The notes: a model not told the origin generated them from the letters alone. Counted from the stretch's first letter, positions 20,634-35,598 are shown. The stretch is 35,946 nucleotides of DNA from an uncultured bacterium (GCA_964637655.1 CAZWUZ010000006.1:1-35946); one strand, 5' to 3'. A program made the numbers and translations.

Positions 20634-21877
20634 CAGTTCCTTCCGGCCCGGCGCTGTGCGACCAGTTCCGCGTAGAGCGCGCGGTAGGCGTCGGCGACAT
20701 GCACCCAGGTGTGGCGGGCGGTGACCAGTTCGCGGCCGGCGCGGCCGAGGCGCGCGCGTTGCGCATCGTCGCCGGCCAGTTCCTGCATGATGGTCGCGAG
20801 TGCGGCGGCGTCGTCGGGCGGCACGAAGCGTGCCGCATTGCCGTCGGCACCGGCGAGGTCGCGTTGCGGCGGCGCCTCGGCGAAGACCACCGGCAGTCCG
20901 GCAGCCCAGGCGTCGAGCGCGGCGATGCCGAACGAATCGGTGACGGTCGGATAGAGAAACACGTCGGCGGCGGCGTAGAGCTGCGCCTTGTCTTCCCCGG
21001 GAAAATCGGGGACGAGGGTAAGCCGCGCGCGTGCCGTCGCCGGGAGGCGTTCTGCTGCGGCGTGCACTTCTGCTGCGTACGGGCTGCGCGTGCTCCCCGC
21101 GAGCAGCAGGTGGCAGTCGGTGCCGGCGGCAACGCAGCGGGCGAAGGCGTCGAGGATGAGCGGCAGTCCCTTGCCCGGAATGAACTGCCCGGCATACAGG
21201 AACACCGTGCCATCAAGCCGCCAGCGCGTGCGGGCGGCGCTGCGGTCGACGCCGTCCGTCCAGCCGGGGTCGGCACCCGCGGCGATGAGGTGCACACAGT
21301 CAGCGGCGACGCCGTTGCGGACAGCACACTCGCGCTCGAATGGCGTGTGTGCGACATAGGCAGCAGCGCGACGGGTGAACCGCCAGGTGTACGGGTGGCG
21401 GTGCAGCGGCTCGCGGTCATGGTAGGCCCCGACGAGCACCAGCGGAGTACCGGTCAGCGGCGCCAGCCATGCCGCGGCAGGCATCTGCAGGCAGGGGAAG
21501 GTGGTCGCCATGACGATGTCGTGACAGCCGTGCAGCAGGCGGGGGAGGAGCGCAGGCATACGCGGTCCGAAACGGACGTAGCGCAGATGCGCGCCCGTCA
21601 TCCCGTCGCCACAGAAGGCGATGGCCCGGTCGAGCCACCGGGTGCCCCCGCGCCAGGTGCGCAGCCGCTCCACCCGCACGCCGTTGATGACCTCCACGCC
21701 GCAGGGTAATCGCTCGCGCTGCGGCAGATTGAAATCATCGCAGCAACAGCCGTCCGGGCAGAGTACGGTGACCCGGTCTCCGTGACGGTTGACCAGCAGT
21801 TCTGATACACGTTGTACGCGGTATTCACTCCCCCCCCGCGCTGGCGCGTACCCCTGAACGATATGCAGGATATCCAT
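20633..21877 (-). CDS. GT4 family glycosyltransferase (first gene of minus-strand operon)
   Basis: MDILHIVQGYAPARGG is a GT4 N-terminus. C-terminal motif YPTVTDSFGIAALDAWAAGLPVV (E-x7-E-like region). ATG at 21875-21877 (minus). Confidence 0.8.
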   Translation of the reverse strand: MDILHIVQGYAPARGGSEYRVQRVSELLVNRHGDRVTVLCPDGCCCDDFNLPQRERLPCGVEVINGVRVERLRTWRGGTRWLDRAIAFCGDGMTGAHLRYVRFGPRMPALLPRLLHGCHDIVMATTFPCLQMPAAAWLAPLTGTPLVLVGAYHDREPLHRHPYTWRFTRRAAAYVAHTPFERECAVRNGVAADCVHLIAAGADPGWTDGVDRSAARTRWRLDGTVFLYAGQFIPGKGLPLILDAFARCVAAGTDCHLLLAGSTRSPYAAEVHAAAERLPATARARLTLVPDFPGEDKAQLYAAADVFLYPTVTDSFGIAALDAWAAGLPVVFAEAPPQRDLAGADGNAARFVPPDDAAALATIMQELAGDDAQRARLGRAGRELVTARHTWVHVADAYRALYAELVAQRRAGRN

Positions 21878-22032
21878 GTCGCTGCAAGCATAGCATTTTT
21901 CCTTTTCCCTGTCGTGTCATTTTTTTTTGCCTGCGCAGATTGGGAAGTTGTACACATCTCGCAATGCCACGTACTATTACGTTTGCATGAAGTTTTATAA
22001 CAAATGGTAGTATTTTTTCAACAATTACTGGT
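21878..22032. promoter_or_regulatory. AT-rich divergent intergenic/promoter region with a T9 (A9) homopolymer
   Basis: A 155-bp region of markedly lower GC than the flanking ORFs. It separates the minus-strand glycan operon (start 21877) from the plus-strand sulfatase-like genes (start 22033). Contains the T run 21920-21928 and several TTGxxx/TAxxAT-like hexamers on both strands. Confidence 0.6.
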
Positions 22033-23085
22033 ATGCGGTGTACCTGGAAGAAAACCGCCTTGCTGGGTATCGCAGTGATGCTGATGGCGGGCGTGTTCCT
22101 GCCGGATGCGCTCAGGGCCTCACGGCGGCGCATGGTAGTGGTACTGGTGACGGTTTCCGGACTAACCTACGATGCAGTGGTTGCCAGTCAGTCGCAGAGC
22201 ATGCCGCAACTGCGAGAGCTGATGCGGACCGGGGCATTGTTCACGAACGTGTACGCTCCGGCTGACAATGCCGCAGCGTCTCTTGCCTCGCTGCTTACCG
22301 GTATGAGTGTGCCGGAACATGGCGTGTGGGAAAAGGGGGATGTGCTGCTGAACAGCGTGCCGCTGCTGCCTGATGACTGGCGGCGACGCGGGATGCCGAC
22401 AGCGGCATTCAGCAATTCACCGCTGCCGCTGACGACCAGCCTGACCCACGGGTTTGCAGTCGCTCCGCCGCCGGCGATGGATGCCGCGCAGGTGAACGGC
22501 ATGGTGGCGGCATGGCTGGCGGAGCATCCTGCCGGTGGCACACCGCCGGCGCTCTGGGTGCACTACCGGGATGTGCTTACAGTTTCCGGTGGTGCGGAAG
22601 CGTTGCGCATGACCGATTACCACATCGGCAAACTGCTAACGGTACTCCGGCACGCCGGGTACCATCAGGGCAACACCATGTTTCTCGTTGCCGGGGTGCC
22701 CGGACCGGCGGCAGGCGGTGCACCTGCCGACCGGTTGTGCCGCGAAGTGGTGCACGTGCCGCTGGTCTGGTCGGTGCCCGGCGGGCGGCGGCAGGCGCGC
22801 CCTGAACTGCGGTCACTGGCCGACGTGCCGGCGCTGTTGCGGGCGGAACTGGACGGGTTGCCCTGGCCGTTGCCCGCGGCGGAAGTGTTCGCTACCGCCG
22901 GCGGCGCCCGCAGCGGCCGCCTGCACCTGGCGGCGATCAGTCCGGGCCGGTTTGCGGTTGACCAGGCCGCGACTGAACTCTCCCCGGCCGGGCAGGCATT
23001 TCACGCGCGCCAGCTGGCGCGTTCGCCGCTGCTGACCGCAGCGCGGCGCAGCGAAACACTGCGCGCCACCGGCTACCTGCACTGA
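22033..23085 (+). CDS. sulfatase-fold (alkaline phosphatase superfamily) protein, predicted catalytically inactive paralog; N-terminal signal/TM
   Basis: Collinear with the next gene but with active-site blocks degenerated. VVLVTVSGLTYDAV replaces the metal-binding DTxRADH block, APADNAAASLASLLTG replaces the nucleophile motif, and LVAGVPG replaces TADHGE. N-terminal hydrophobic segment KKTALLGIAVMLMAGVFL. Confidence 0.6.
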   Translation: MRCTWKKTALLGIAVMLMAGVFLPDALRASRRRMVVVLVTVSGLTYDAVVASQSQSMPQLRELMRTGALFTNVYAPADNAAASLASLLTGMSVPEHGVWEKGDVLLNSVPLLPDDWRRRGMPTAAFSNSPLPLTTSLTHGFAVAPPPAMDAAQVNGMVAAWLAEHPAGGTPPALWVHYRDVLTVSGGAEALRMTDYHIGKLLTVLRHAGYHQGNTMFLVAGVPGPAAGGAPADRLCREVVHVPLVWSVPGGRRQARPELRSLADVPALLRAELDGLPWPLPAAEVFATAGGARSGRLHLAAISPGRFAVDQAATELSPAGQAFHARQLARSPLLTAARRSETLRATGYLH

Positions 23086-24493: not shown

Positions 24494-25783
24494 TCAGGCG
24501 TCCTGCAGCAGAATCTTGACCTGGCCGGGGAGCAGGTGGTACTCGAAGTGGCTGCCGATTTCCGCCACGCGGTGCTCGGGTGACACGTCGCGCACCGCGC
24601 CGCGGCGCTGGAACGGGGCGCTCACGTCATGCAGGCAGACGCGCTGATGCGCGCCAAGGTCGCGGTTGACGAGCAGCAGCGCCTGCTGCCGGCGGTCGCG
24701 GCTCACCTTGCGCAGCGCCAGCACGTTCCCTGAGCCGATGAGCGGCACCACGGTCGCGAAACTGTCCTCGTGCAGCACCCGGTGCTCTTTTTTGACCGCC
24801 AGCAGCGCGGTGATGAACGGCGACAAATCGACGTCTGTCTGCTCGCGGTCTGTCGGGCGCGTGCGTACCACATGGAGTTTCTGCCGGTAGCCGAACTCCG
24901 TCCCCTGCGTCAGCATGAAACCCGCCGACCAGCAGGCGGTGAACGCCAGCCGCTGCTTGACCGCCTCGACGTTGCCGCTGCAGTCCGCCAGCAGGCGCGG
25001 GGTATCATGCGATTCGGCGAAACTGATGCTCGGCACATCGCGCACGAAGACGAGGTACTCGTGCTGCTGCTGCAGCAGCCACTCGTCGCGGAAATTCCAG
25101 TACTTGCTGCTGTTGAAGGTGAAATCGAACCCCGCCCCCGCCAGCGCGATGCTCTGGTCCACCGTGCAGCCCAGCGACTCGGCGAGGAAAAGCGTTTCGC
25201 GCCGCTGCCGCGCGTCGGCGATCAGATCACCCCACACCCCGGCGGGTACCTGATAGGCGGCGTCGCAGCGGAAACCGTCGGCGCCCAGTTCCTGCAGCCA
25301 GGCAATCAGTTTGTGCCAGTAGACCGTCAGTTCACGCCGGGCTTTCGCGTCGGTGTAGTCAAGTTCCGCCAGGTCGCCCCACTCCACCCACCTGCCGTTG
25401 TCGAGCGCCCCGGGATGAGCAATCTTCCCGTCCGGCTTCCGCTGGTACCAGTGCGGGTGCTGCGTGACGAGCGGGGAATCGAAGGCGGTGTGGTTGATGA
25501 CCAGGTCGAGGATGACCCTGAGTCCCGCCTTGTGCGCCGCGGCAAACGTGTTGCGCAGCGTGCCGAGCGGGTTGCAATCACCCTCGACGAGCAGCGGGTG
25601 CAGACGGTAGTAGTCGGCCACCGAGTAGAGTGACCCCGAGTAGCCGGGCTGGTGAATGGGGTTGAGGTAGACGGCGTTGCAGCCGAGCGCGGCGATACGC
25701 GGAAATTCCGCCGCCCAGGTGCGTACCGGGCCGGCCAGCAGCGGAAACAGGTTGTAAAGCAGCAGCGGTTCGCGGTCGGCCAT
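24494..25783 (-). CDS. GH13 alpha-amylase family protein (glucan hydrolase or transglycosylase)
   Basis: GH13 blocks LDLVINHTA (region I), GFRCDAA (region II, catalytic Asp), EFGY/FAESHD-type later blocks. Start at ATG 25781-25783 has GAGGTG 9 nt upstream. An alternative ATG at 25816 has a poor SD. Tail-to-tail with the sulfatase-like gene, no spacer. Confidence 0.8.
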   Translation of the reverse strand: MADREPLLLYNLFPLLAGPVRTWAAEFPRIAALGCNAVYLNPIHQPGYSGSLYSVADYYRLHPLLVEGDCNPLGTLRNTFAAAHKAGLRVILDLVINHTAFDSPLVTQHPHWYQRKPDGKIAHPGALDNGRWVEWGDLAELDYTDAKARRELTVYWHKLIAWLQELGADGFRCDAAYQVPAGVWGDLIADARQRRETLFLAESLGCTVDQSIALAGAGFDFTFNSSKYWNFRDEWLLQQQHEYLVFVRDVPSISFAESHDTPRLLADCSGNVEAVKQRLAFTACWSAGFMLTQGTEFGYRQKLHVVRTRPTDREQTDVDLSPFITALLAVKKEHRVLHEDSFATVVPLIGSGNVLALRKVSRDRRQQALLLVNRDLGAHQRVCLHDVSAPFQRRGAVRDVSPEHRVAEIGSHFEYHLLPGQVKILLQDA

Positions 25784-25880
25784 CAGGGCACCTCGTCGTC
25801 GGGATATGCGCAGCATACCTTGCCCGTTCCGCTACCGTCAACCGTAGTGCCGGAGAAAAGAAGAAAAGAGAGAAGAAAAG

Positions 25881-26144
25881 GAGAAGAAAAGGTGCCACTC
25901 TTTCACATTTTCACATTTCATCTTGTGTATCAAATTGTAATTGCAAATGGATACACGAAGCAGTCGCTATTTTTATCCATAGATCAGCGCACAGGTTTCG
26001 CGTGTTTTACTGTCCTTACACGACGCACGCTTGCGGGTGTGAAGAAATAAGAAAACAGTTGTATTTTTGCGTATCACCGACATATCATTATGCCAAACAT
26101 GCGGATGTGAAAAACGAAATGTGAAAATGTGAAAGAGTGGCACC
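25881..26144. repeat. perfect 29-bp inverted repeat pair (25881-25909 and 26116-26144) flanking 206 bp AT-rich spacer; MITE-like or regulatory element
   Basis: Left arm ggtgccactctttcacattttcacatttc is the exact reverse complement of the right arm gaaatgtgaaaatgtgaaagagtggcacc. The arms contain internal ttcacatt / tgtgaaaa direct repeats. Immediately 5' is a 31-nt polypurine tract (25852-25882). Confidence 0.85.
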
Positions 26145-26156
26145 ATAGGAGCGCAG

Positions 26157-26186
26157 TAAAAATGCGCCGGCAGGACAGCCCGGCGC
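26157..26186 (-). terminator. rho-independent terminator downstream of fliD
   Basis: On the minus strand there is a 7-bp GC stem GCGCCGG/CCGGCGC (26164-26170 and 26180-26186) with a 9-nt loop, followed by ATTTTTA (26157-26163). It begins about 20 nt after the fliD stop. Confidence 0.6.
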
Positions 26187-26205
26187 GGGTTTGACGGACG
26201 GAAAA

Positions 26206-27621
26206 CTAATTGCCCAGCTGGCTCAGCTGTCCGGTCAGCCAGCTGGCGGTGTTCTGGAACTTGGCCAGCGCCATTTCGAGATTGGTGAAGGTGGTGCGGT
26301 AGCCCGCCTCGCGGCGCTCGAGAATGAGATCGAAGGCGTCGATGCGGTCCTGCAGCATGTCGATGGAGGACTGCATGGCGTCCTGCTGGTCGGCGAGCAG
26401 CCCGCCATACTGGGTCAGCGGGGTGAGGTACTCATCCATGCCCACCGCGATGCCCTCGTCGTAGCCGGCGCTGCCGTCGGTGTCCTTGGCGAACAGGGAA
26501 CGCACCGCGTCGGGGTTGGCAGTGATCGCCGCGCGCAGCGCGGTCTCGTCGATGATCAGCTTGTTGGCATCGCTGGTGCCGTAGGTGCCCAGCTCGACGC
26601 CGATGGCGCTGAGCGAGGTGTACTCGCCCGCGCTGCTGTAGCGGCCCATGGCGACATTGTAGAGGCGGTTTTCGATCTGCGTGGCGAAGATGTTGCCGGC
26701 CAGTTCGCCCGTGCCGCTGACCGCCCCGTCGCTGCCCAGGGTGATCTGCGTCTGCCGGCGGATGAAGTCGGTGCTGCTGTTGTACTGGTCGACCCATGCC
26801 TTGACCGCGTTGAAAATGCTGCCGGTATCGGTGGCGACGGTGAGCGTGGCGGCGCTGTAGTCGGCGGGCCAGGCGTCAATCCCGTCGATGCCGGTGACGT
26901 CCTGGAGGCTGATGGTCACCCCGGTGATGACGTCGTCGATGCCCGTGTTGGCGCTGCGCGTCACCTCGATGCCGTCGACGGAGAAAATGGCGTCCTGCGC
27001 CCCCTGCAGCTCGGTGACGAAGGTGTCGGGGGCGGAGATGACGTTGAGGTCGGTCATCAGCGTGCCGGACGTGTCGCTCAGGGTCAGCGTGTTGGCGCTG
27101 CCCGGCTCGGCCGCCTTGAGGATGAGGTGGTTGTCGACCACCGTGGCGCTGACCTCGTCCCCGTCAGCGTAGTCGGCGCTGTTGATGGCGGAAGCCACCT
27201 GCGCGAGTGTCTGCCCCGCGGTGACGCTGATGAGTTTGCCGTTGAGGGTGAAGGAGGAGTCGGCCCCGACCGTCCAGGCATCCGCCTGCTGCGCGCTGCG
27301 CACCTGCTGCGCCAGCGCCAGCTGCTTGACCTTGAGGTCGTAGGTGCCCGCGGTGGCGGTGTTGTCAGCCGTGGCGGTGAAGACGGAGGTGTCGGATGAG
27401 GTTGCGGTACGCCCCTGCCAGAGCGAGCTTTCGGTCAGCGCCTCGGATTTTGTTTTCAGGGAGAGGAGCCGGCTGTTGATGTCCTTCCAGGCGTCCTTGT
27501 CCCTGGTGTACTGGTTCTGGCGGTTGACCCACGCGGTAATCGGCTTGCGCTCGACCGCCATGAGCTGATCGATGGTGCTGTTCCAGTCGTTGCCGGTGGC
27601 GAGCCCTGAAATGGATCCCAT
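26206..27621 (-). CDS. fliD: flagellar filament capping protein FliD (hook-associated protein 2)
   Basis: The N-terminus MGSISGLATGNDWNSTIDQLMAVERKPI and C-terminus YRTTFTNLEMALAKFQNTASWLTGQLSQL are the conserved FliD terminal coiled-coil segments. ATG at 27619-27621 has GGAGGGAG upstream. The track start at 27711 is a spurious extension. Confidence 0.9.
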   Translation of the reverse strand: MGSISGLATGNDWNSTIDQLMAVERKPITAWVNRQNQYTRDKDAWKDINSRLLSLKTKSEALTESSLWQGRTATSSDTSVFTATADNTATAGTYDLKVKQLALAQQVRSAQQADAWTVGADSSFTLNGKLISVTAGQTLAQVASAINSADYADGDEVSATVVDNHLILKAAEPGSANTLTLSDTSGTLMTDLNVISAPDTFVTELQGAQDAIFSVDGIEVTRSANTGIDDVITGVTISLQDVTGIDGIDAWPADYSAATLTVATDTGSIFNAVKAWVDQYNSSTDFIRRQTQITLGSDGAVSGTGELAGNIFATQIENRLYNVAMGRYSSAGEYTSLSAIGVELGTYGTSDANKLIIDETALRAAITANPDAVRSLFAKDTDGSAGYDEGIAVGMDEYLTPLTQYGGLLADQQDAMQSSIDMLQDRIDAFDLILERREAGYRTTFTNLEMALAKFQNTASWLTGQLSQLGN

Positions 27622-27658
27622 AGGTCGTCTCCCTCCATGGAGTCGGTTGCTGCTCGAT

Positions 27659-27686
27659 ATATCGGCAGCAGCGCCCGTATACTTTA
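27659..27686 (-). promoter_or_regulatory. sigma-28 (FliA/SigD)-type promoter upstream of fliD
   Basis: Minus strand reads TAAA-N16-GCCGATAT (plus-strand coordinates 27683-27686 and 27659-27666). It matches the class III flagellar promoter consensus TAAA-N15-GCCGATAA/T and lies about 40 nt upstream of the fliD ATG. Confidence 0.55.
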
Positions 27687-27752
27687 TATGCCGGCAGAAT
27701 AAACGATACAATTAGAGCAAAACAGAGAGATATAACGATACAAAAAAGCCGG

Positions 27753-27781: not shown

Positions 27782-27877
27782 GAGCGCTGTACCCCAACTG
27801 CATATCCGTACCGGAACGCATTACCGGCCGCCGTGCGCGGCCGCGCCCATACACCTGCTGGTGGAAGGAGTTTCCGC

Positions 27878-29959
27878 ATGGATGGCATCTCGATGGTGAT
27901 TACCGGAGTTATCGGCCTGTTCGGCACGCTGGTTGTCCTGGCGGTGCTGTACGGGATATTGCGGGTGGTGATCGGCTGGACCTACCGCATCCCGCAGCAG
28001 GGGCAGGCGCTGGTGCGCACCGGCGTGGGGGGGATCCGCATCGCCTTCGAGTCGGGCATCTTCGTCTTCCCCATCGTGCACCGGCTGGAGATCATGGACA
28101 TCAGCGTCAAGCGCGTGGAAATCCACCGTGAGGGCTCGACGGGCCTGATCTGCAAGGACAACCTGCGCGCCGACATCAAGGTGACCTTCTACGTGCGCGT
28201 GGACAGCAAGTCCCCCGATCACGTCAAGGCGGTGGCGCAGATTCTCGGCTGCCAGCGCGCCTCGGACACGCAGGTGCTGGCGGAACTGTTCGAGCCGAAG
28301 TTCTCCGACGCGCTCAAGACCGCGGGGCGCGACTTCAACTTCGAGGACCTGCTCAACAAGCGCGCCGAGTTCCGCGACGCGATCAAGGTCCATGTCGGCA
28401 CCGACCTCAACGGTTACATCCTCGACGACGCGGCCATCGACATCCTCGAGCAGTCGAAAGTGGAAAAACTCGACCCGAACAACATCCTCGACGCCGAGGG
28501 AATCAAGCTGATCACCGAGCGCACGGCGGTACAGGCCATCCTGACCAACGAGCGCAACCGTGACAAGGAGCGCGAGATCAACAAGAAAAATGTCGAGACG
28601 CGCGAGATCGTGCTCGAGCAGAACAAGCAGCTGGCCGAGGCGGAGGAAAAGCAGAAGCGGGAGGTGGCCTCGATCAAGGCCCGCGAAGAAGCGGAAACGA
28701 TCAAATTCCAGCAGGAGCAGCGGCTGCGTCACGAGAAGGCGCGCATCGCCTCTGACGAGGAAATCCAGGTCAGCGAGGAGAACAAGAACCGGCAGATCAT
28801 CGTGGCCGCGCGCAACCGCGAGCGCACCGACGGGGTCGAGCAGGTGCGCGTGCAGAAGGACCGCCAGCTCGAGGACGTCGAGCGCGACAAGGTGGTGTCG
28901 CTCGCCGCCATCGAGAAGACCAAGGTGGTCGAGACCGAGCAGAAGAACATCCAGGAGGTGATCCGCGCCCGCGTCGCCGTGCAGAAGGACGTGGTCGTCG
29001 AGGAACAGCGCATCAAGGATACCGAGGCGTTCGCCACCGCCGAGCGCGAGAAAAAGGTGGTCATTACCATGGCCGAGGCGGAGGCGGAACAGGCGGTGGT
29101 GCGGCAGGTGAAGGCGGCGGAGGCGGCGAAACAGGCGGCGGAACTGAAGGCAGAACAGGACCTGCTGGTCGTGCTCAAGGCGGCCGAGGCGCAGCGCCAG
29201 GCGGCGGCCCTGCTCGCCGAGAAGCGCGTGACGGAGGCGACGGGCGAGCAGGAGGCGTCGGCCCGCATCGCCACCGGCAAGAAGGCGCTGGCCGAGGGGA
29301 TCACCGCCGAGCAGGCGGCCGCCGGGCTGGCGGAGGCGAACGTCATCGCCGCGCGGGCGGCGGCGCTGCAGAAGCAGGGGGAGACCGAAGCGAGCGTGGC
29401 GCAGCTGAAATTCAAGGCGGAAGCGGACGGCATCACCAAGAAGGCCGAGGCGATGAAACTGTTCCACGAGGCGGGGCGCCAGCACGAGGAATTCAAGCTG
29501 CGCCTCGGGGTGGAGAAGGATATCGCGCTGGCCGACATCGCCGTGCGCAAGGACATCGCCGCCAGCCAGGCGGAAGTGCTCGGCGAGGCGCTGAGCCACG
29601 CCAAGGTGGACATCGTCGGGGGCGAGACGCAGTTCTTCAGCAGTGTGGTCAACGCGGTGACGGGCGGGCGCATGGTCGATCACGCGGTCGACAGCAGCCG
29701 CGTGCTCGGTGATGTGCACGCGGCGCTCACCGCGGGGGGCGCGGAGGGGTTTGCCGCGCGCCTGCGCGAGCTGCTCGCCCGCTTCCCGCTCGGCAGCGAG
29801 GACGTGAAGAACCTGACCATCGCCGCGGCGCTGGCGAAACTGGCGGGCGTGGCGTCGGGCGCCGACGCGAAGCGTCTCGTGCGCGACCTGCTGACGCAGG
29901 CGCAGGAGCGCGGGCTGGCGGAAAAAAGGGTCGGCGACCTGCCGGGCGGGGGCGCCTGA
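27878..29959 (+). CDS. flotillin-family SPFH (band 7) domain protein with N-terminal membrane anchor and long EA/Q-rich coiled-coil
   Basis: N-terminal TM (ISMVITGVIGLFGTLVVLAVLYGIL), then an SPFH domain, then about 350 aa of Ala/Glu/Gln-rich flotillin-type coiled coil (AEAEQAVVRQVKAAEAAKQAAELKAEQ...). 693 aa. The track start at 27833 extends through the SD and is rejected. Confidence 0.9.
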   Translation: MDGISMVITGVIGLFGTLVVLAVLYGILRVVIGWTYRIPQQGQALVRTGVGGIRIAFESGIFVFPIVHRLEIMDISVKRVEIHREGSTGLICKDNLRADIKVTFYVRVDSKSPDHVKAVAQILGCQRASDTQVLAELFEPKFSDALKTAGRDFNFEDLLNKRAEFRDAIKVHVGTDLNGYILDDAAIDILEQSKVEKLDPNNILDAEGIKLITERTAVQAILTNERNRDKEREINKKNVETREIVLEQNKQLAEAEEKQKREVASIKAREEAETIKFQQEQRLRHEKARIASDEEIQVSEENKNRQIIVAARNRERTDGVEQVRVQKDRQLEDVERDKVVSLAAIEKTKVVETEQKNIQEVIRARVAVQKDVVVEEQRIKDTEAFATAEREKKVVITMAEAEAEQAVVRQVKAAEAAKQAAELKAEQDLLVVLKAAEAQRQAAALLAEKRVTEATGEQEASARIATGKKALAEGITAEQAAAGLAEANVIAARAAALQKQGETEASVAQLKFKAEADGITKKAEAMKLFHEAGRQHEEFKLRLGVEKDIALADIAVRKDIAASQAEVLGEALSHAKVDIVGGETQFFSSVVNAVTGGRMVDHAVDSSRVLGDVHAALTAGGAEGFAARLRELLARFPLGSEDVKNLTIAAALAKLAGVASGADAKRLVRDLLTQAQERGLAEKRVGDLPGGGA

Positions 29960-29973
29960 CCGCGGGCTGACCC

Positions 29974-32900
29974 GTGGCGGAAAGCGCTCCCGCTGTTCCG
30001 GCCCCCGGGCTGGAAGCGGGCACCTACGAGATCCTGCGGCAGCGCCTGCGGGCGCAGGCGGACCTGCTGCGCGACCGGCTCGCGGTGCTCGACCGCGAGC
30101 GGCGTGCGGTGTTCGGCGCCATCCCCTTCGCGCTGCAGTCGACGGAGCGCATCACCACCGCCAACAACTGCGTGCCGCGCGACCTGGTGGCCATCGGCCC
30201 CGACTGCTTCCTGCTCGGCTATAACGTGCGCCTCGGGCTGCGCACGGAGACGAACCTCGCCGACGTTTTCGCCCGCTATTCCTACCGCGGGCACCAGTTC
30301 CACGAGGAGTCGCTCGACTGCCTGCAGAGCGGCGAGTTCGAGCGCGATTTCAAGGAACTCTACAAGTATTACCGCGCGGCCACCTTCTCGGCGTTCCGCG
30401 TCATCGGGCCGCACCTGTACATGGCTTTCCAGGTGGGGAAGACCGCGGACGACCTCAAGACCTTCAAGTGGGCGCTCGACAACGGCGTGCTCACCTATCT
30501 CGGCAACCGCTCCGACCACGAGTTCACCTACCCGCCGCAGCACGAATTCGCGTGGCGGCGCGCGGTGCGCGACTTCCACCGTCTCGGCACGCATCCGCAT
30601 GTCAGCATCGAGGACCGCGTTTTCGTCGAGTGCGTCGGGGGCGACCTGACGGTCAAGGTCGAGGACAACACCGAGACGGGCGAGGGCATCTACACCGAGC
30701 CGGTGGAAAACCGCGACCAGACGCTCGACGACGCGGAAATCCACTACGCCATCGTCGGGGCGCTGATCCTCCTGCGCCTCCGCCCCTTCCAGGAGAAGGC
30801 GTACCGCTACCTCGTCTACAGCGAGAAACTGCGCACGGTGTACCGCGTCGACGACATCGGCGAGGCGTGCGTGCTCCTCCCCGACGACCAGGGAATCGTC
30901 TTCCCGCACGGCTACGTGCTGCAGACGGGCGAGTGCAAGCGCTTCGACAACGATTTCACCGGCATGGTCTACGCCGGGCGCTGCGACGCGCCCAACGGCG
31001 AGGACTACCTGTACGACTTCCTCAACCGCGACACGGGGGTGGATATCGTCCTCGCCTACAACCGCATCGCGCAGAGCATGCAGCCGCCCATCATCTGCAA
31101 CGGGTTCGCGGTGTTCGACAGCGGCGCAATGGTGCTCTTCCGCAGCGACGACCAGCCGCAGAAGCATCACGCGCTGCAGGTCTGGCAGACGCCGTTCGTC
31201 GGGCGCAACGTCGTCCCGGCCGCGGCGCGCACCGACTCGTTCCTCTACAAACTGGGGAGCGCGACGGTGGTCAACGCGCTGGCCGAGGGGCACGAGATCC
31301 TCGCGCTGTGCGGCAAGGACGACACCTATGCCGGTCTGTACAGCGACCTCGTGCGCGCGACCGCGACCATGCTCGACACCTACTTCTGGCTGCACGAACC
31401 GGCGGCGGGCAGTCTGCGCGAGCCGCTGCAGGGGATCCGCACCGCCGCGTCCGCCGCCATCGCCGAGTACGAGAAGGTGGCGCGGCTCAAGCGCACGGCG
31501 CAGGCGGAACTGCAGCGGCAGCGGCAGGCGGTGGCGGAGCAGGTGCGGGCCATCGACTACTACGCGCTCAAGCGTATCGACGTCTTCGTGCAGCACCTGG
31601 CGGGGCTGCGGGCGCGGCGCGGCGCGCTGGTGACCGCGCGCGAGGTGCGCTATGTCGACCTGCCCGCGCTGGCGCAGCTCGAGCAGGAGGTGGCCGGGCA
31701 CGCGGAAAAGCTCTTCGGGCTGTGCGTGCAGTTTCTGCTCGGGGACGAGGCGCTCGCCCCCTATGCGCAGCGCGCGGAGGGGTTCCGCGCGCAGGTGCCG
31801 CAGGCGGCGACCGGCAAGGCGGCGACGGAACTGGCCGCGGCCATCAGCGCGGCGGCGGGCGAACTGGAGATGCTCATCGAGATCGTCGGCACGCTGAAGA
31901 TCGACGACGCGACGCAGACGACGCGCATCGTCGACCGCATCTCGACCATCTACGCCGCGCTCAACCAGGTCAAGTCGCTGGCGCAGGCGCGGCGGCGCGA
32001 CCTGGCGGGAGCGGAGGGAACGGCGCAGTTCGCGGCGCAGCTCAAGCTGCTGGCGCAGGCGGTCACCAACTACCTCGACCTGGCGTCTGACGCGGCGAAA
32101 TGCGACGAGTACCTGACCAAGCTGATGGTGCAACTCGAGGAACTCGAGGGCGCCTACGCCGACTTCGACGAGTTCCTGCCGCAGCTGGCGGCGAAGCGCG
32201 AGGAGATCTACGGCGCCTTCGCGGCGAAGAAGGTGCAGCTGGCGGAGGCGCGGCAGCGGCGCTGCAACGCGCTGGCGGAGACCGCCGAGCGCATCCTCAC
32301 CGGCATCCGTCACCGTGCCGCGTCGTTCGCCGCGCTCGACGACCTCAACGCCTACTTCGCGTCCGACCTGATGATCGACAAGGTGCGCGACACCGCGGCG
32401 AAACTGACCGCGGCGGAGGAAACCGTGCGCGCCGAGGAGATCCTCGGGCGCCTCAAGACCATTCAGCAGGACGCGGTGCGCCAGCTCAAGGACAAACTCG
32501 AACTGTACGTCGACGGGGCCAATGTCATCCGCTTCGGGACGCACCATTTCTCGGTCAACACCCAGCCGCTCGACCTGGCCATGGTCCTGCGTGACGGGGA
32601 GATGCACTACCACCTGACGGGCACCAACTACTTCGAACCGGTGACCGACGCGGAGTTTCTCGCCACGCGCGCGGTCTGGAATCGCGAGGTGGTGGCGGAG
32701 AGCCCGCAGGTCTACCGCGCCGAGTACCTCGCCTGGAGCATCCTGCGCGATGCGGTGATGCGCGGCAGCGCGGCGCTGGCGGAGTGGCGCGGGCATGACG
32801 CGGCGGCGCGCCTCGCGGCGGTGCGCGCGTTCATGGCGCCGCGCTACGCGGAAGGGTATGTCAAGGGGGTGCATGACACCGACGCGGCGCTGCTGCTCGG

Positions 32901-35598
32901 GGAACTGCTGCGCCTGCACGGTGAACTGCAGCGCCTGCGCTTCGCTCCCGCCGCGCGCGCGCTGGCCCGCCTCTGGTGGGAGGATCCCGCCGACCCGGAA
33001 CGCAAGCGTCTGCTCGGGGCGCGCCTGCGCAGCCGCGGCGCCGCCCGCCGCCAGTTCCCGCACTGGGAGGACCGCGCGGTCATTGCCGAGGCGGAACAGC
33101 TGCTGGCCGCGTATGCCGCGGCGGGCGGATGCGGCAGCGCGCCGCCCGCGGCCGCGGCGGAATACCTCGCCGACGAACTGGGCGAAGGTGACCGCTTTGT
33201 CGTCAGCAGCGAGGCGGCGGCGCTCGTTGCGGGCTGTCTCGACGCGCTGCGCGCGCGCGGGGCGCTGGCCGATTTTACCGCCGCGCGCGAGGCGGTGAAG
33301 GACGACCGCCGCGCCGCGTGGTGCGTCGTTCGCGACTGGCTAGCCGCCTACCTGACTGACGGCAACGGCCGCCACGACGCGGCGTTCCTCGACGAGGCGG
33401 CGGGTCTGCTGCTCGCGGGCGGCGCCACGGCGGCAGCCGCGGGTGCGGCCAGCGCTGCGGTGACCGTCAGCGGCATGGTCGGCACCCACCCGGTCATCGC
33501 CGGGGGCGAGTACCGGCTCAACTACCACGCCTTCATGGAGAAACTCGACCGCTTCGCCGCGGTCGAGGTGCCCGCCTTCACCCGCTGCGCGGAGCGCAAG
33601 CAGGCGCTGCTGGCACAGCGCCGCGCGGAACTCCGCCTGCAGGAATTCGTCCCGCGCGTGCTGACGACGTTTGTGCGCAACCGCCTTATCGACCGGTACT
33701 ACCTGCCGCTGCTCGGCGGCAACATGGCCAAGCAACTGGGCACCACGGGGGCCGACAAGCGCACCGACCGCTCGGGCCTGCTGCTGCTCATCTCCCCGCC
33801 GGGCTACGGCAAGACCACGCTCATCGAGTATCTTGCCAGCCGGCTCGGCATCGTCTTCATGAAGATCAACGGGCCCGCGCTCGGGCCGCGCGTCACCTCG
33901 CTCGATCCCGCCGAGGCGCCCAACGCGGCGGCGCGCGAGGAGATCAGCAAACTCAACCTTGCGCTCGAGATGGGGGACAACGTCCTCATCTGCCTCGACG
34001 ACATCCAGCATACCAGCCCCGAGTTCCTGCAGAAGTTCATCTCGCTGTGCGACGCGCAGCGCAAGATCGAGGGAGTCTTCCGCGGGCAGCCGCGCACCTA
34101 CGATCTGCGCGGGCGCAAGGTGATGGTGGTCATGGCGGGCAACCCCTACACCGAGAGCGGGGCGCGCTTCGTCATTCCCGACATGCTCGCCAACCGCGCT
34201 GATACCTACAACCTCGGCGATGTTGTTTCCACCAACGAGGAGATCTTCCGCGAGAGTTACCTCGAAAACGCGGTGACGTCCAATCCCGTCATCGCGCGGC
34301 TCGGACGCGCCAGCCAGCAGGACGTGCAGGCGGTCATCCGCCTCGCGCAGTCGGGCGGCACCGCGACGGTCGATCTGGCGGGTACTTACTCTCCGGAAGA
34401 ACTGAGCGAGATGGTCGAGGTGATGCGCCGCCTTATCCGCATTCGCGACATCGTCTACCGCGTCAACCAGGAGTATATCCGCTCCGCCGGCACCGCCGAG
34501 GCGTACCGCACCGAGCCGCCGTTCAAGCTGCAGGGCTCCTACCGCAACATGAACCGCCTCGCCGAGAAGGTGCTGCCGGTGATGACTGACGCGGAGATCG
34601 ACAACCTGATCTTCGACCATTACAAGAGCGAGGCGCAGACGCTGACCACGGGCGCGGAAGCCAACCTGCTGAAATTCCGCGAACTGACCGGCACGCTGAC
34701 GGGGGCGGAGGCGGAACGCTGGGCGGAGATCAGGCGCGCCTTCAAGCGCAACCTGCTTGCGGGAAGCGGTGACACGGACGACCCCGTCGGGCGCGTCGTG
34801 GCGCAACTGGCGTCGTTCCGCGAGGGGATCGACACGCTCGAAGCGTCGCTGGCGAAGGGACTGGCGGGTGCCGCGGAGCAGCTGCGTGGCGCGCTGCCGG
34901 CCGCCACGGCGGCGACCGCGCCGGCGAAGGCGGAAATGGCGCTGTCGCCCGAAACCGTGGCGCAGCTGACCCGACTGGCGGAGCAGGCGGCACCGCGTGT
35001 CGTGGTGGTGCCGGTGCCGGTGGGTGGAGGACTTGCTCCGGTGTCGCGCGTGGAACCGGCACCGGTACAGGCGACGCCCGCGGTTCCGGCTGCACATCCG
35101 GCAGCTGATCACCCGGCCATGCCCGCGGCGCAGCCGTCGGCGAAACCGGGGGCACCGCCGCAGATCACCGGCGAGTACCGTGATGAGTTTGTGCTGCCGC
35201 TGGGCGAACTGCTCACCTTTCCCGCGCGCACCTACACGCTGCGCGGCAGCAATATCCGTCCCGGCGCGCACCTCTTCGTCTACGACAAGAAACAGCCGAT
35301 CGTCGTGCGCGACGGCGCGTCGGTCATCTACACCCCGCCTCCCAACCCGAAACTGCGCCCGTGCGTGGTCATCGGCGAGGTGGCGCTCGGGTTCCGGGTG
35401 GACGGGCCGCAACAGGCGACCCTGACGCTCGAACTGCGCCAGACGGTCAACCGCGGCCTGCAGGAACCGTATACCGAGGTGCTGCCCGTCACCATCATCA
35501 ATCCCGACGGCACCTACGCGCCCTATGTGCAGCTGCAGTTCCTTGCCACGCCGCAGGCGGGCCAGCCGGTGCGGCCGAAACGGAAGCCCGCGAGGTGA
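29974..35598 (+). CDS. giant (1874 aa) multidomain protein with central AAA+ ATPase module, coiled-coil segments and Pro/Ala-rich linker; flotillin-associated
   Basis: Continuous open frame with strong GC3 bias. Walker A LLLISPPGYGKTTLIEY (nt ~33790-33825), Walker B VLICLDDIQH (nt ~33981-34010) and MVVMAGNPYT (a sensor-1-like block). Pro/Ala-rich low-complexity linker at nt 35020-35165. The start is GTG 29974, the first possible start after the in-frame stop at 29968-29970, so the exact start is uncertain. Confidence 0.8.
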   Translation: MAESAPAVPAPGLEAGTYEILRQRLRAQADLLRDRLAVLDRERRAVFGAIPFALQSTERITTANNCVPRDLVAIGPDCFLLGYNVRLGLRTETNLADVFARYSYRGHQFHEESLDCLQSGEFERDFKELYKYYRAATFSAFRVIGPHLYMAFQVGKTADDLKTFKWALDNGVLTYLGNRSDHEFTYPPQHEFAWRRAVRDFHRLGTHPHVSIEDRVFVECVGGDLTVKVEDNTETGEGIYTEPVENRDQTLDDAEIHYAIVGALILLRLRPFQEKAYRYLVYSEKLRTVYRVDDIGEACVLLPDDQGIVFPHGYVLQTGECKRFDNDFTGMVYAGRCDAPNGEDYLYDFLNRDTGVDIVLAYNRIAQSMQPPIICNGFAVFDSGAMVLFRSDDQPQKHHALQVWQTPFVGRNVVPAAARTDSFLYKLGSATVVNALAEGHEILALCGKDDTYAGLYSDLVRATATMLDTYFWLHEPAAGSLREPLQGIRTAASAAIAEYEKVARLKRTAQAELQRQRQAVAEQVRAIDYYALKRIDVFVQHLAGLRARRGALVTAREVRYVDLPALAQLEQEVAGHAEKLFGLCVQFLLGDEALAPYAQRAEGFRAQVPQAATGKAATELAAAISAAAGELEMLIEIVGTLKIDDATQTTRIVDRISTIYAALNQVKSLAQARRRDLAGAEGTAQFAAQLKLLAQAVTNYLDLASDAAKCDEYLTKLMVQLEELEGAYADFDEFLPQLAAKREEIYGAFAAKKVQLAEARQRRCNALAETAERILTGIRHRAASFAALDDLNAYFASDLMIDKVRDTAAKLTAAEETVRAEEILGRLKTIQQDAVRQLKDKLELYVDGANVIRFGTHHFSVNTQPLDLAMVLRDGEMHYHLTGTNYFEPVTDAEFLATRAVWNREVVAESPQVYRAEYLAWSILRDAVMRGSAALAEWRGHDAAARLAAVRAFMAPRYAEGYVKGVHDTDAALLLGELLRLHGELQRLRFAPAARALARLWWEDPADPERKRLLGARLRSRGAARRQFPHWEDRAVIAEAEQLLAAYAAAGGCGSAPPAAAAEYLADELGEGDRFVVSSEAAALVAGCLDALRARGALADFTAAREAVKDDRRAAWCVVRDWLAAYLTDGNGRHDAAFLDEAAGLLLAGGATAAAAGAASAAVTVSGMVGTHPVIAGGEYRLNYHAFMEKLDRFAAVEVPAFTRCAERKQALLAQRRAELRLQEFVPRVLTTFVRNRLIDRYYLPLLGGNMAKQLGTTGADKRTDRSGLLLLISPPGYGKTTLIEYLASRLGIVFMKINGPALGPRVTSLDPAEAPNAAAREEISKLNLALEMGDNVLICLDDIQHTSPEFLQKFISLCDAQRKIEGVFRGQPRTYDLRGRKVMVVMAGNPYTESGARFVIPDMLANRADTYNLGDVVSTNEEIFRESYLENAVTSNPVIARLGRASQQDVQAVIRLAQSGGTATVDLAGTYSPEELSEMVEVMRRLIRIRDIVYRVNQEYIRSAGTAEAYRTEPPFKLQGSYRNMNRLAEKVLPVMTDAEIDNLIFDHYKSEAQTLTTGAEANLLKFRELTGTLTGAEAERWAEIRRAFKRNLLAGSGDTDDPVGRVVAQLASFREGIDTLEASLAKGLAGAAEQLRGALPAATAATAPAKAEMALSPETVAQLTRLAEQAAPRVVVVPVPVGGGLAPVSRVEPAPVQATPAVPAAHPAADHPAMPAAQPSAKPGAPPQITGEYRDEFVLPLGELLTFPARTYTLRGSNIRPGAHLFVYDKKQPIVVRDGASVIYTPPPNPKLRPCVVIGEVALGFRVDGPQQATLTLELRQTVNRGLQEPYTEVLPVTIINPDGTYAPYVQLQFLATPQAGQPVRPKRKPAR

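Follow-up and report, generated by a model that had tools for sequence, protein, structure and literature searches.

The window analysed here is a 35,946-bp stretch of DNA (GCA_964637655.1 CAZWUZ010000006.1:1-35946) that makes up one entire contig of an NCBI metagenome-assembled genome (MAG). Its source is a deep-branching unclassified bacterium; the Der GTPase encoded in the window was 71% identical to a protein recorded as 'MAG TPA: bacterium' and ~50% identical to Firmicutes proteins. We describe an inverted-repeat element that lies between fliD (26206-27711, minus strand; Pfam FliD_N and FliD_C) and a GH13 alpha-amylase-family gene (24494-25783, also minus strand). The fliD gene is followed by an intrinsic terminator (26157-26186, minus strand), which consists of GCGCCGG, a 9-nt loop, CCGGCGC and then ATTTTTA, and which was overlooked by the automated terminator scan because its loop exceeds 8 nt. 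The GH13 gene is served by a sigma-70-type promoter (25812-25841, minus strand; TTGACG-N18-TATGCT). The element is situated 3' of the terminator and 5' of the promoter, and these two signals mark the upstream and downstream boundaries of the insertion site, respectively.

A repeat finder and direct reading of positions 25500-26500 both delimited an inverted repeat that is perfect over 29 bp (25891-25919 and 26116-26144), with 196 bp between the arms and an overall length of 254 bp; the arms extend imperfectly to 34 nt (25891-25924 and 26111-26144, 94%). A first-pass annotation of this DNA had recognised the arms as exact reverse complements in the setting given above and had placed the right arm correctly, but it put the left arm at 25881-25909, having dropped 10 bases, and gave the spacer as 206 bp. 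Each arm is one 28/29-nt terminal-repeat unit with its head outward, the left on the plus strand and the right on the minus strand, and reads as a GC-rich head (GGTGCC AC; GGTGCCAC) followed by TCTTTCAC ATTTTCAC ATTTC. In general form, the 28-nt unit is a GGTGCC head joined to tandem 8-mers (TTTCACAT); this TTTCAC-type unit is written GGTGCCACTCTTTCACATTTTCACATTTC. The two ttcacatt-type copies per arm that had been noticed earlier (TTCACATT) are present, although they are described more exactly as three tandem 8-mers (CACTCTTT CACATTTT CACATTTC; Tandem Repeats Finder, period 8), and the additional tgtgaaaa said to lie just inward of the right arm was located at 26107-26114. None of 40 dinucleotide-preserving shuffles of the whole window contained a perfect inverted repeat of more than 15 nt (longest per shuffle 11-15 nt, with the arms no more than 400 bp from each other), compared with the 29 nt observed, which bears out the earlier view that chance is a very unlikely source. 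No third copy of the arm 29-mer occurred in the window with ≤3 mismatches permitted.

The interior (25920-26115; 196 bp) is AT-rich (40% GC) and non-coding, and the element as a whole, at about 40-41% GC, has the lowest GC content of the window (65.5%). Short open reading frames (ORFs) in the element had no Pfam match, and a 57-aa internal ORF had no real homologue among 1.84 billion representative proteins, the single match being a repetitive stretch of 9. As single-stranded DNA or RNA, the element is predicted to fold into a long hairpin closed by a 29-34-bp stem, with calculated energies of -113.5 kcal/mol for the minus-strand fold (z = -7.0) and -55 kcal/mol for the DNA fold (z = -7.7). 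The stem base of the minus-strand fold is GC-rich and is followed by a U/C-rich run, and an internal imperfect palindrome (25925-25956; GTGTATCAAATTGTAA/TTGCAAATGGATACAC; 16-nt arms, 81%) forms a local hairpin within the folds. A repetitive extragenic palindromic (REP) unit is a palindrome of 20-40 bp with a GTAG or CGTC tag at one end. The arm unit is not self-complementary and carries neither tag, and so is not a REP by that definition, but the element does have the inverted ends and variable spacer of a hairpin doublet.

The orthologous fliD-GH13 junctions of relatives, which we reached through GH13 homologues, showed that this DNA is not ancestral at the site. In L004, the closest relative (GH13 95% identical), the terminator was kept as far as ...GCGCTCC and the promoter from CGGTTGACG onward, and an unrelated GC-rich stretch of ~175 bp takes the place of the element. 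In L005 (69%) and L016 (71%), the distance from the terminator to the -35 hexamer was within about 35 bp, and in L006 (70%), whose contig starts 126 bp upstream of GH13, the promoter was kept and was preceded by unrelated sequence. The terminator was thus conserved in L004 and the promoter in L004, L005, L006 and L016, and the element was absent from 4 of 4 relatives that retained one or both flanking signals. Because the junctions of these relatives are without it, the window-specific segment (25844-26147; about 304 bp, 40% GC, including a purine tract described below) is a derived acquisition; the lineage of the window gained the arm pair and its AT-rich interior at this site, 3' of the fliD terminator and 5' of the GH13 promoter.

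A metagenome scan with a head-containing 20-mer of the arm identified the unit at a second locus, L007, where four units are arranged in a nested inverted fashion (u1 u2 - 36 bp - u3' u4') between a carbon-nitrogen (CN) hydrolase gene and a molybdopterin oxidoreductase gene. An ungapped alignment of these units with the window arm gave 22-25 identical positions out of 28, one of the units having an exact 20-mer in common with the arm, and u1 and u4 were exact complements of each other. The L007 region was predicted to form an almost perfect hairpin (-102 kcal/mol, z = -10.9), which is lengthened by flanking G-U pairs and lies within a pair of genes arranged like an operon. By its Der and CN-hydrolase matches, L007 belongs to an uncultured gammaproteobacterial lineage, and the unit is therefore common to two phyla. 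The 196-bp interior of the window element had no counterpart in L007 or in the relatives of the window.

Relatives of L007 differed at the orthologous site. Three of them (L013-15, 85% identical) had a 32-bp intergenic gap without the element, one (L012, 91%) had a different GC-rich hairpin, and another (L039, 87%) had a dimer of GGGGACAGTTTACCTATTC, a classical GGGGACAG-type terminal inverted repeat (TIR), at L039 4740-4822. The hairpin in L012 (11075-11200; CAGGAGCGGCTTCAGCCGCG...) is itself REP-like. This intergenic site appears to be a hotspot for palindromic insertions, and presence or absence of an element among close relatives was seen at both loci, that of the window and that of L007.

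Searches for further copies were negative: none was found in about 400 kb of fetched loci, BLAST with the whole element, the arm or the L007 element returned nothing meaningful from 72,556 plasmids and 50,697 phages, pattern scans of viral collections for the unit returned nothing, and the arm sequence as a string was not found in the literature. A scan with a 23-mer of the arm had also produced three Acidobacteriota MAG loci (L001-L003), which we rejected as homologues; they have only the TTTCAC 8-mer run in common with the arm and are without the GGTGCC head. These matches were discounted as convergent low complexity because (ATTTTCAC)n arrays are common minisatellites in viral contigs. Such (ATTTTCAC)n and (ATTTTCCC)n 8-mer minisatellites occurred in AT-rich giant-virus MAG contigs among L018-L036 (e.g. 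L020, L025, L029 and L034). The Blastocatellia arrays of 8-mers (NNTTTCAC) were situated at L001 1710-1812, L002 600-675 and L003 3780-3855; those of L001 and L002 lie between rpsU and surE and fold into an imperfect hairpin, and in L003 nine tandem 8-mers lie just upstream of a promoter, beside three TTGGGTCAC repeats. No Y1 gene was present in the 8-kb loci L001-L003, and Acidobacteria are known to have a sharply defined group of TIR-associated tyrosine transposases (TIRYTs; Di Nocera et al. 2013, PMC3733652).

The findings at the two loci bear on several explanations of the inverted repeat. That it is an incidental palindrome or an assembly artefact might be suspected of a window that is an entire MAG contig, but this is the least probable account of all: both flanks are colinear with four independent relatives, the unit was recovered from an independent metagenome in a comparable inverted arrangement, and the probability of a 29-bp perfect inverted repeat arising by chance is negligible. 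A structured non-coding RNA (ncRNA), or a hairpin that stabilises or terminates mRNA reading through from fliD, would account for the strong minus-strand fold with its GC-rich stem base and U/C-rich run, and for the position of the L007 hairpin in an operon-like pair. We regard it as highly improbable, since a conserved intrinsic terminator lies upstream of the element and the next promoter downstream, the two loci show no conservation of the interior, and relatives lack the element. Nothing in Rfam 15 reached the gathering threshold for the element, and a permissive threshold returned, on both strands, only MIR821 (28 bits, with 249 required), a spurious long-hairpin microRNA match about 220 bits short. 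The first-pass annotation had offered the stem of a structured ncRNA among four possibilities, and it is not upheld by these results.

Another of its four possibilities was a pair of looping operator sites. In this explanation the arms would be paired operator arrays, read perhaps by a ribbon-helix-helix (RHH) regulator on 4-bp boxes, that loop the DNA to control GH13 and the glycosylation island. The 8-bp periodicity of the arms, with ACTC/ACAT boxes and TTTC spacers, brings to mind the ParG operator and centromere of plasmid TP228, in which ACTC tetramer boxes alternate with 4-bp AT-rich spacers (PMC3130281), and the element is immediately 5' of the GH13 promoter. Such a role is nevertheless very unlikely. 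The sites are absent from relatives that have the same promoter, and in another phylum the unit is found in an unrelated gene context. No gene for a regulator adjoins the element, each arm offers only three boxes, and the distance between the arm centres (225 bp, 21.4 helical turns) does not put them in phase for simple looping. The suggestion of a recombination site was likewise unsupported, no recombinase gene having been seen near either element, although no direct test was made.

A putative link to a transposase came from the lineage of L007. In a related locus (L037), whose CN hydrolase is 87% identical to that of L007, a 293-aa ORF lies directly upstream of the CN hydrolase gene. Its product matched Pfam Y1_Tnp (47 bits) and the NCBIfam model 'REP-associated tyrosine transposase' (RAYT; 78.6 bits, compared with a cut-off of 80), contained HUH (HIH) and Y---NP motifs, and showed a weak C-terminal Bac_DnaA_C helix-turn-helix (HTH) match (E = 4.5e-4); a PDB sequence search with this protein found nothing. 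The gene is bracketed by a 28-nt inverted repeat (96%, GGTGCCGGGTTTGGCTTTTTGGCTTATT) that has its 8-nt head in common with three of the L007 units (L007 and L037 have GGTGCCGG as head, and the window has GGTGCCAC). The repeat also agrees with the L007 and window units in length, in head-out orientation and in the layout of a head followed by two tandem 8-mers, with boxes that read TTTGGCT in L037 as against TTTCACA in the window and L007.

Seven homologues of the L037 protein (L041-L047; from plasmids and viral contigs, 25-44% identity) were each bracketed by TIRs of 19-39 nt with heads that were mostly GGGG(A/T)(C/G)A(C/G), and the GGGGWSAS motif was carried in L041-L047; a homologue from Sporomusa also had a DnaA_C-like domain. 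The homologue on a Pseudoalteromonas plasmid (L041), a TIRYT that was unannotated in the PLSDB gene table, is accompanied by three or four tandem TCAAGGGGTCAGAGTTGTTGA units on each side (L041 250-330 and 1390-1555), multi-unit ends that resemble the two-units-per-side layout of L007. These properties match published descriptions. TIRYT genes have long TIRs on both sides, in units named TIRtrons, and GGGGWSAS is found in the majority of the TIRs, some families of which are moderately abundant and 'organized as REPs in dimers or clusters' (Di Nocera et al. 2013, PMC3733652); TIRYTs are assigned to Y1 subclass 2.1, whose proteins carry a Bac_DnaA_C or HTH domain at the C-terminus (Quentin et al. 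2018, PMC6006769), and REPINs are RAYT-mobilised hairpin doublets (Bertels & Rainey 2011, PMC3116915).

Of the four options offered by the first-pass annotation, a mobile element is the best supported, because the insertion is miniature, non-coding, compositionally foreign and absent in relatives, and because its terminal unit recurs in inverted form elsewhere. Since what appear to be the closest relatives of that unit bracket a Y1/HUH gene, the element would fall in the REPIN or 'TIR repeat' class. We consider it probable that it is an orphan inverted dimer of TIRYT-type terminal repeats, that is, a non-autonomous element resembling a REPIN or a miniature inverted-repeat transposable element (MITE) and mobilised by an HUH enzyme rather than by a DDE transposase. 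In the mechanism that we propose, 28-nt TIR units belonging to TIRYT/RAYT-class Y1 genes would spread through intergenic DNA as non-autonomous elements, and the unit would be recognised by a transposase encoded elsewhere in the genome. Cleavage would take place at the GGTGCC head, and an accessory HTH domain would bind the tandem TTTCACAT boxes. The transposase would move the hairpin via a single-strand intermediate, and this would explain why no target-site duplication accompanies the element. Target-site duplications are not expected of HUH transposition.

The inspection for target-site duplications that had been proposed to identify a MITE found none, either at the window (flanks ...AGAAAA|GGTGCC and GGCACC|ATAGGA...) or at L007 (CTTTTT| and |GGGGGA). 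A classical MITE, derived by deletion from an insertion sequence of the DDE-transposase type and moved in trans by way of its 29-bp TIRs, is unlikely for this reason and for two others: no similarity was found in plasmid and phage collections rich in insertion sequences, and the only transposase found beside a related end sequence is a Y1/HUH enzyme. The length of 254 bp, the size of the TIRs, the non-coding AT-rich interior and the presence/absence polymorphism would all match the published definition of a MITE (70-300 bp, TIRs of 15-30 bp; PMC3733652). The earlier suggestion of a MITE is supported as regards mobility and not as regards the DDE type. Several other candidates were rejected by eye: a sigma-54 -24/-12 promoter (TGGCAC present, TTGC absent), a CRP site (which would have its half-sites inverted around a 6-bp gap, whereas AAATGTGA is repeated directly), dif/Xer (14 of 28 matches), a parS half-site, and the inverted repeats of the Tn3 family and of IS26/IS1.

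A number of observations weigh against the assignment to HUH-mobilised TIRYT-type repeats. The TTTCAC-type unit is known from two loci only, and the remaining 35.7 kb of the contig contain no further copy. Identity of the L037 TIR to the units is low (15/28 to L007_u3 and 13/28 to the window arm), so that the link consists of the 8-nt head and the common architecture. No transposase gene bracketed by the TTTCAC-type unit itself was found, and tblastn with the L037 protein detected no Y1 transposase gene in the window or in ~100 kb of the relatives' fetched loci; a search with the same protein against the window and all loci also revealed no transposase remnant inside the element. The head GGTGCC(A/G)(C/G) of the window, L007 and L037 units does not fit GGGGWSAS, the 196-bp spacer is longer than those of the L007 (36 bp) and L039 (about 38 bp) dimers, and the comparison of the window with L004 reveals a replacement and not a clean insertion. 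Finally, the assignment does not account for the 41-nt purine tract that adjoins the left arm.

This all-purine tract (25852-25892, plus strand; three copies of an 11-bp tandem repeat, AGAAGAAAAGG) overlaps the left arm by two bases and occupies about -10 to -50 relative to the -35 hexamer of the GH13 promoter. The earlier description of an adjacent all-purine tract was right, but the tract is 41 nt long and not 31 nt (25852-25882). The next longest purine or pyrimidine run in the window was 18 nt. The tract is part of the window-specific segment and is absent from L004 and L005. The earlier suggestion that it could adopt a triplex or H-DNA structure has a real tract as its basis, but the mirror symmetry of the tract is weak (at best 75% over 16 nt).

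The other striking property of the element is its content of sequences resembling DnaA boxes. Of the 25 9-mers in the window that are within one mismatch of TTWTNCACA, a consensus that may not be that of the host lineage, 8 fell in the element and its immediate margin (25885-26150, 266 bp), and none of 500 shuffles of the element reached 8 boxes (mean 0.64). The DnaA-like box of the unit is TTTTCACA. Four boxes lie in the interior, outside the duplicated arms: TGATACACA at 25932 (minus), TTATCCATA at 25973 (plus), TTCTTCACA at 26046 (minus) and, just inward of the right arm, TTTTTCACA at 26106-26114 (minus), which is the only perfect match to TTWTNCACA in the window.

These counts would suit a DnaA-binding element, either a box cluster that titrates or recruits the initiator or what is left of a plasmid or phage origin, in which the arms would be iteron-like and the core AT-rich. 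The element indeed presents a cluster of boxes in AT-rich DNA, half of them outside the arms, but we found neither a conserved position nor linkage to replication genes. Its absence from close relatives means that it is no conserved control site of the chromosome; a family-library scan that covered only part of the ORFs recognised no dnaA, dnaN, rep or par gene in the window; four of the eight boxes are duplicates that come with the tandem and inverted repeats, and do not count independently; and L007, with the same units, has only two TTWTNCACA-like boxes. A function in initiator binding is accordingly quite unlikely.

A different way of connecting the boxes with the proposed TIRYT-type repeats is conceivable, though doubtful: the unit may represent an undescribed class of TIR used by DnaA_C-domain Y1 transposases, with a tail of DnaA-box-like 8/9-mers (TTTTCACA, matching TTWTNCACA). 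Known TIRYT TIRs are unlike DnaA boxes (TIRYT literature), and whether the DnaA-like C-terminus recognises DNA targets is a question posed by Quentin et al. (2018, PMC6006769). The tail is a concrete candidate substrate for that unexplained domain. If the unit were such a TIR, the DnaA-like HTH of the transposase would read the boxes directly, or the element would recruit host DnaA; transposition of hairpin elements would then be tied to the replication initiator, which would answer the question of Quentin et al., and the presence of the unit in two phyla would reflect horizontal spread of a transposase/TIR pair. The likeness of the tail to DnaA boxes could be a coincidence; the boxes of the L037 TIR (TTTGGCT) are not DnaA-like.

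Any effect of the insertion on GH13 expression would be incidental, arising from AT-rich, phased A-tract DNA 5' of the -35 hexamer or from an outward promoter-like site. One such site, facing GH13, is present within the element (26111-26084, minus strand) and comprises TTCACA, a 16-nt spacer and AATGAT, together with an extended -10-like string (TGGCATAAT); it could drive outward transcription. Outward transcription from element-borne promoters has been described for some MITEs.

The wider neighbourhood of the element is taken up by a large glycan-modification island (3517-25783) downstream of fliD, presumably for flagellin glycosylation, which contains B12-binding radical-SAM and SPASM enzymes, GT2 and GT4 glycosyltransferases, FkbM-type and other methyltransferases, two sulfatases and the GH13 gene. 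The island varies among relatives, with radical SAM/SPASM genes in L004 at the place where the window and L005 have sulfatases. The second-lowest GC content of the window (about 45-47%) was found within it, at 21776-22100, between a GT4 gene (minus) and a divergent sulfatase-like gene (plus). On the other side, and divergent from fliD, two very large co-directional ORFs occupy 27833-35598 (plus strand). One (708 aa) had no Pfam match, and the other (1874 aa) matched DUF3686 ('ATPase involved in DNA repair', E = 8e-170), DUF7902 and an AAA domain; long antisense ORFs that overlap the pair had no matches.

For annotation purposes, the element is best recorded as a small insertion of selfish DNA, and not as an operator, small RNA, origin or regulator of flagellar or glycan genes. 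Its sequence type has not previously been described, and it is an ordinary kind of genomic parasite. It introduces a new type of terminal repeat, a GGTGCC head with tandem 8-mers, in a deep-branching uncultured lineage and in a gammaproteobacterium, possibly as a new TIR subtype within a known but little-studied kind. TIRYT/TIRtron elements are, to our knowledge, poorly characterised, and we know of no demonstration of their transposition activity. At the locus itself, the element has reshaped the junction of fliD and GH13 in a fast-changing glycosylation island, with phased A-tract, AT-rich DNA now directly 5' of a conserved promoter.

Among known systems, the ParG/parH arrays of RHH operators (PMC3130281) resemble the element in format only: both have tetramer boxes (one exact ACTC in the window) separated by 4-bp AT-rich spacers in direct and inverted orientation, but each window arm has just three boxes and lacks a par or RHH gene in its vicinity. 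Bacterial MITEs such as Correia/NEMIS, ERIC, RUP and Nezha are similar in overall length (70-300 bp), in TIRs of 15-30 bp, in being non-coding and gene-adjacent and in the possible outward promoter, and differ in that the window element has neither a target-site duplication nor a known DDE insertion-sequence parent. REPINs (PMC3116915) are closer. They too have two inverted conserved ends around a poorly conserved spacer, form a hairpin in single-stranded DNA or mRNA, are extragenic and non-autonomous, and are presumed to be mobilised by a single-copy Y1 transposase; unlike them, the window units are not palindromic and are without the GTAG tag, and their spacing is about 225 bp, compared with 71 bp in the GI REPIN. 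With respect to the TIR repeats of TIRtrons, the window and L007 units differ in the head (GGTGCC(A/G)(C/G) instead of GGGGWSAS), and the window unit differs in its tail of two or three DnaA-box-like tandem 8-mers and in its 196-bp AT-rich spacer in place of a few tens of bp. The points of agreement with TIRtron TIR repeats are a unit of about 28 nt that is not self-complementary and occurs in intergenic, head-out inverted pairs or clusters, the lack of target-site duplication, presence that varies between close relatives, an apparently related unit that brackets the L037 Y1_Tnp gene with its DnaA_C-like C-terminus, and, in L007, a cluster that occupies the niche held by a classical GGGGACAG-type TIR dimer in L039.

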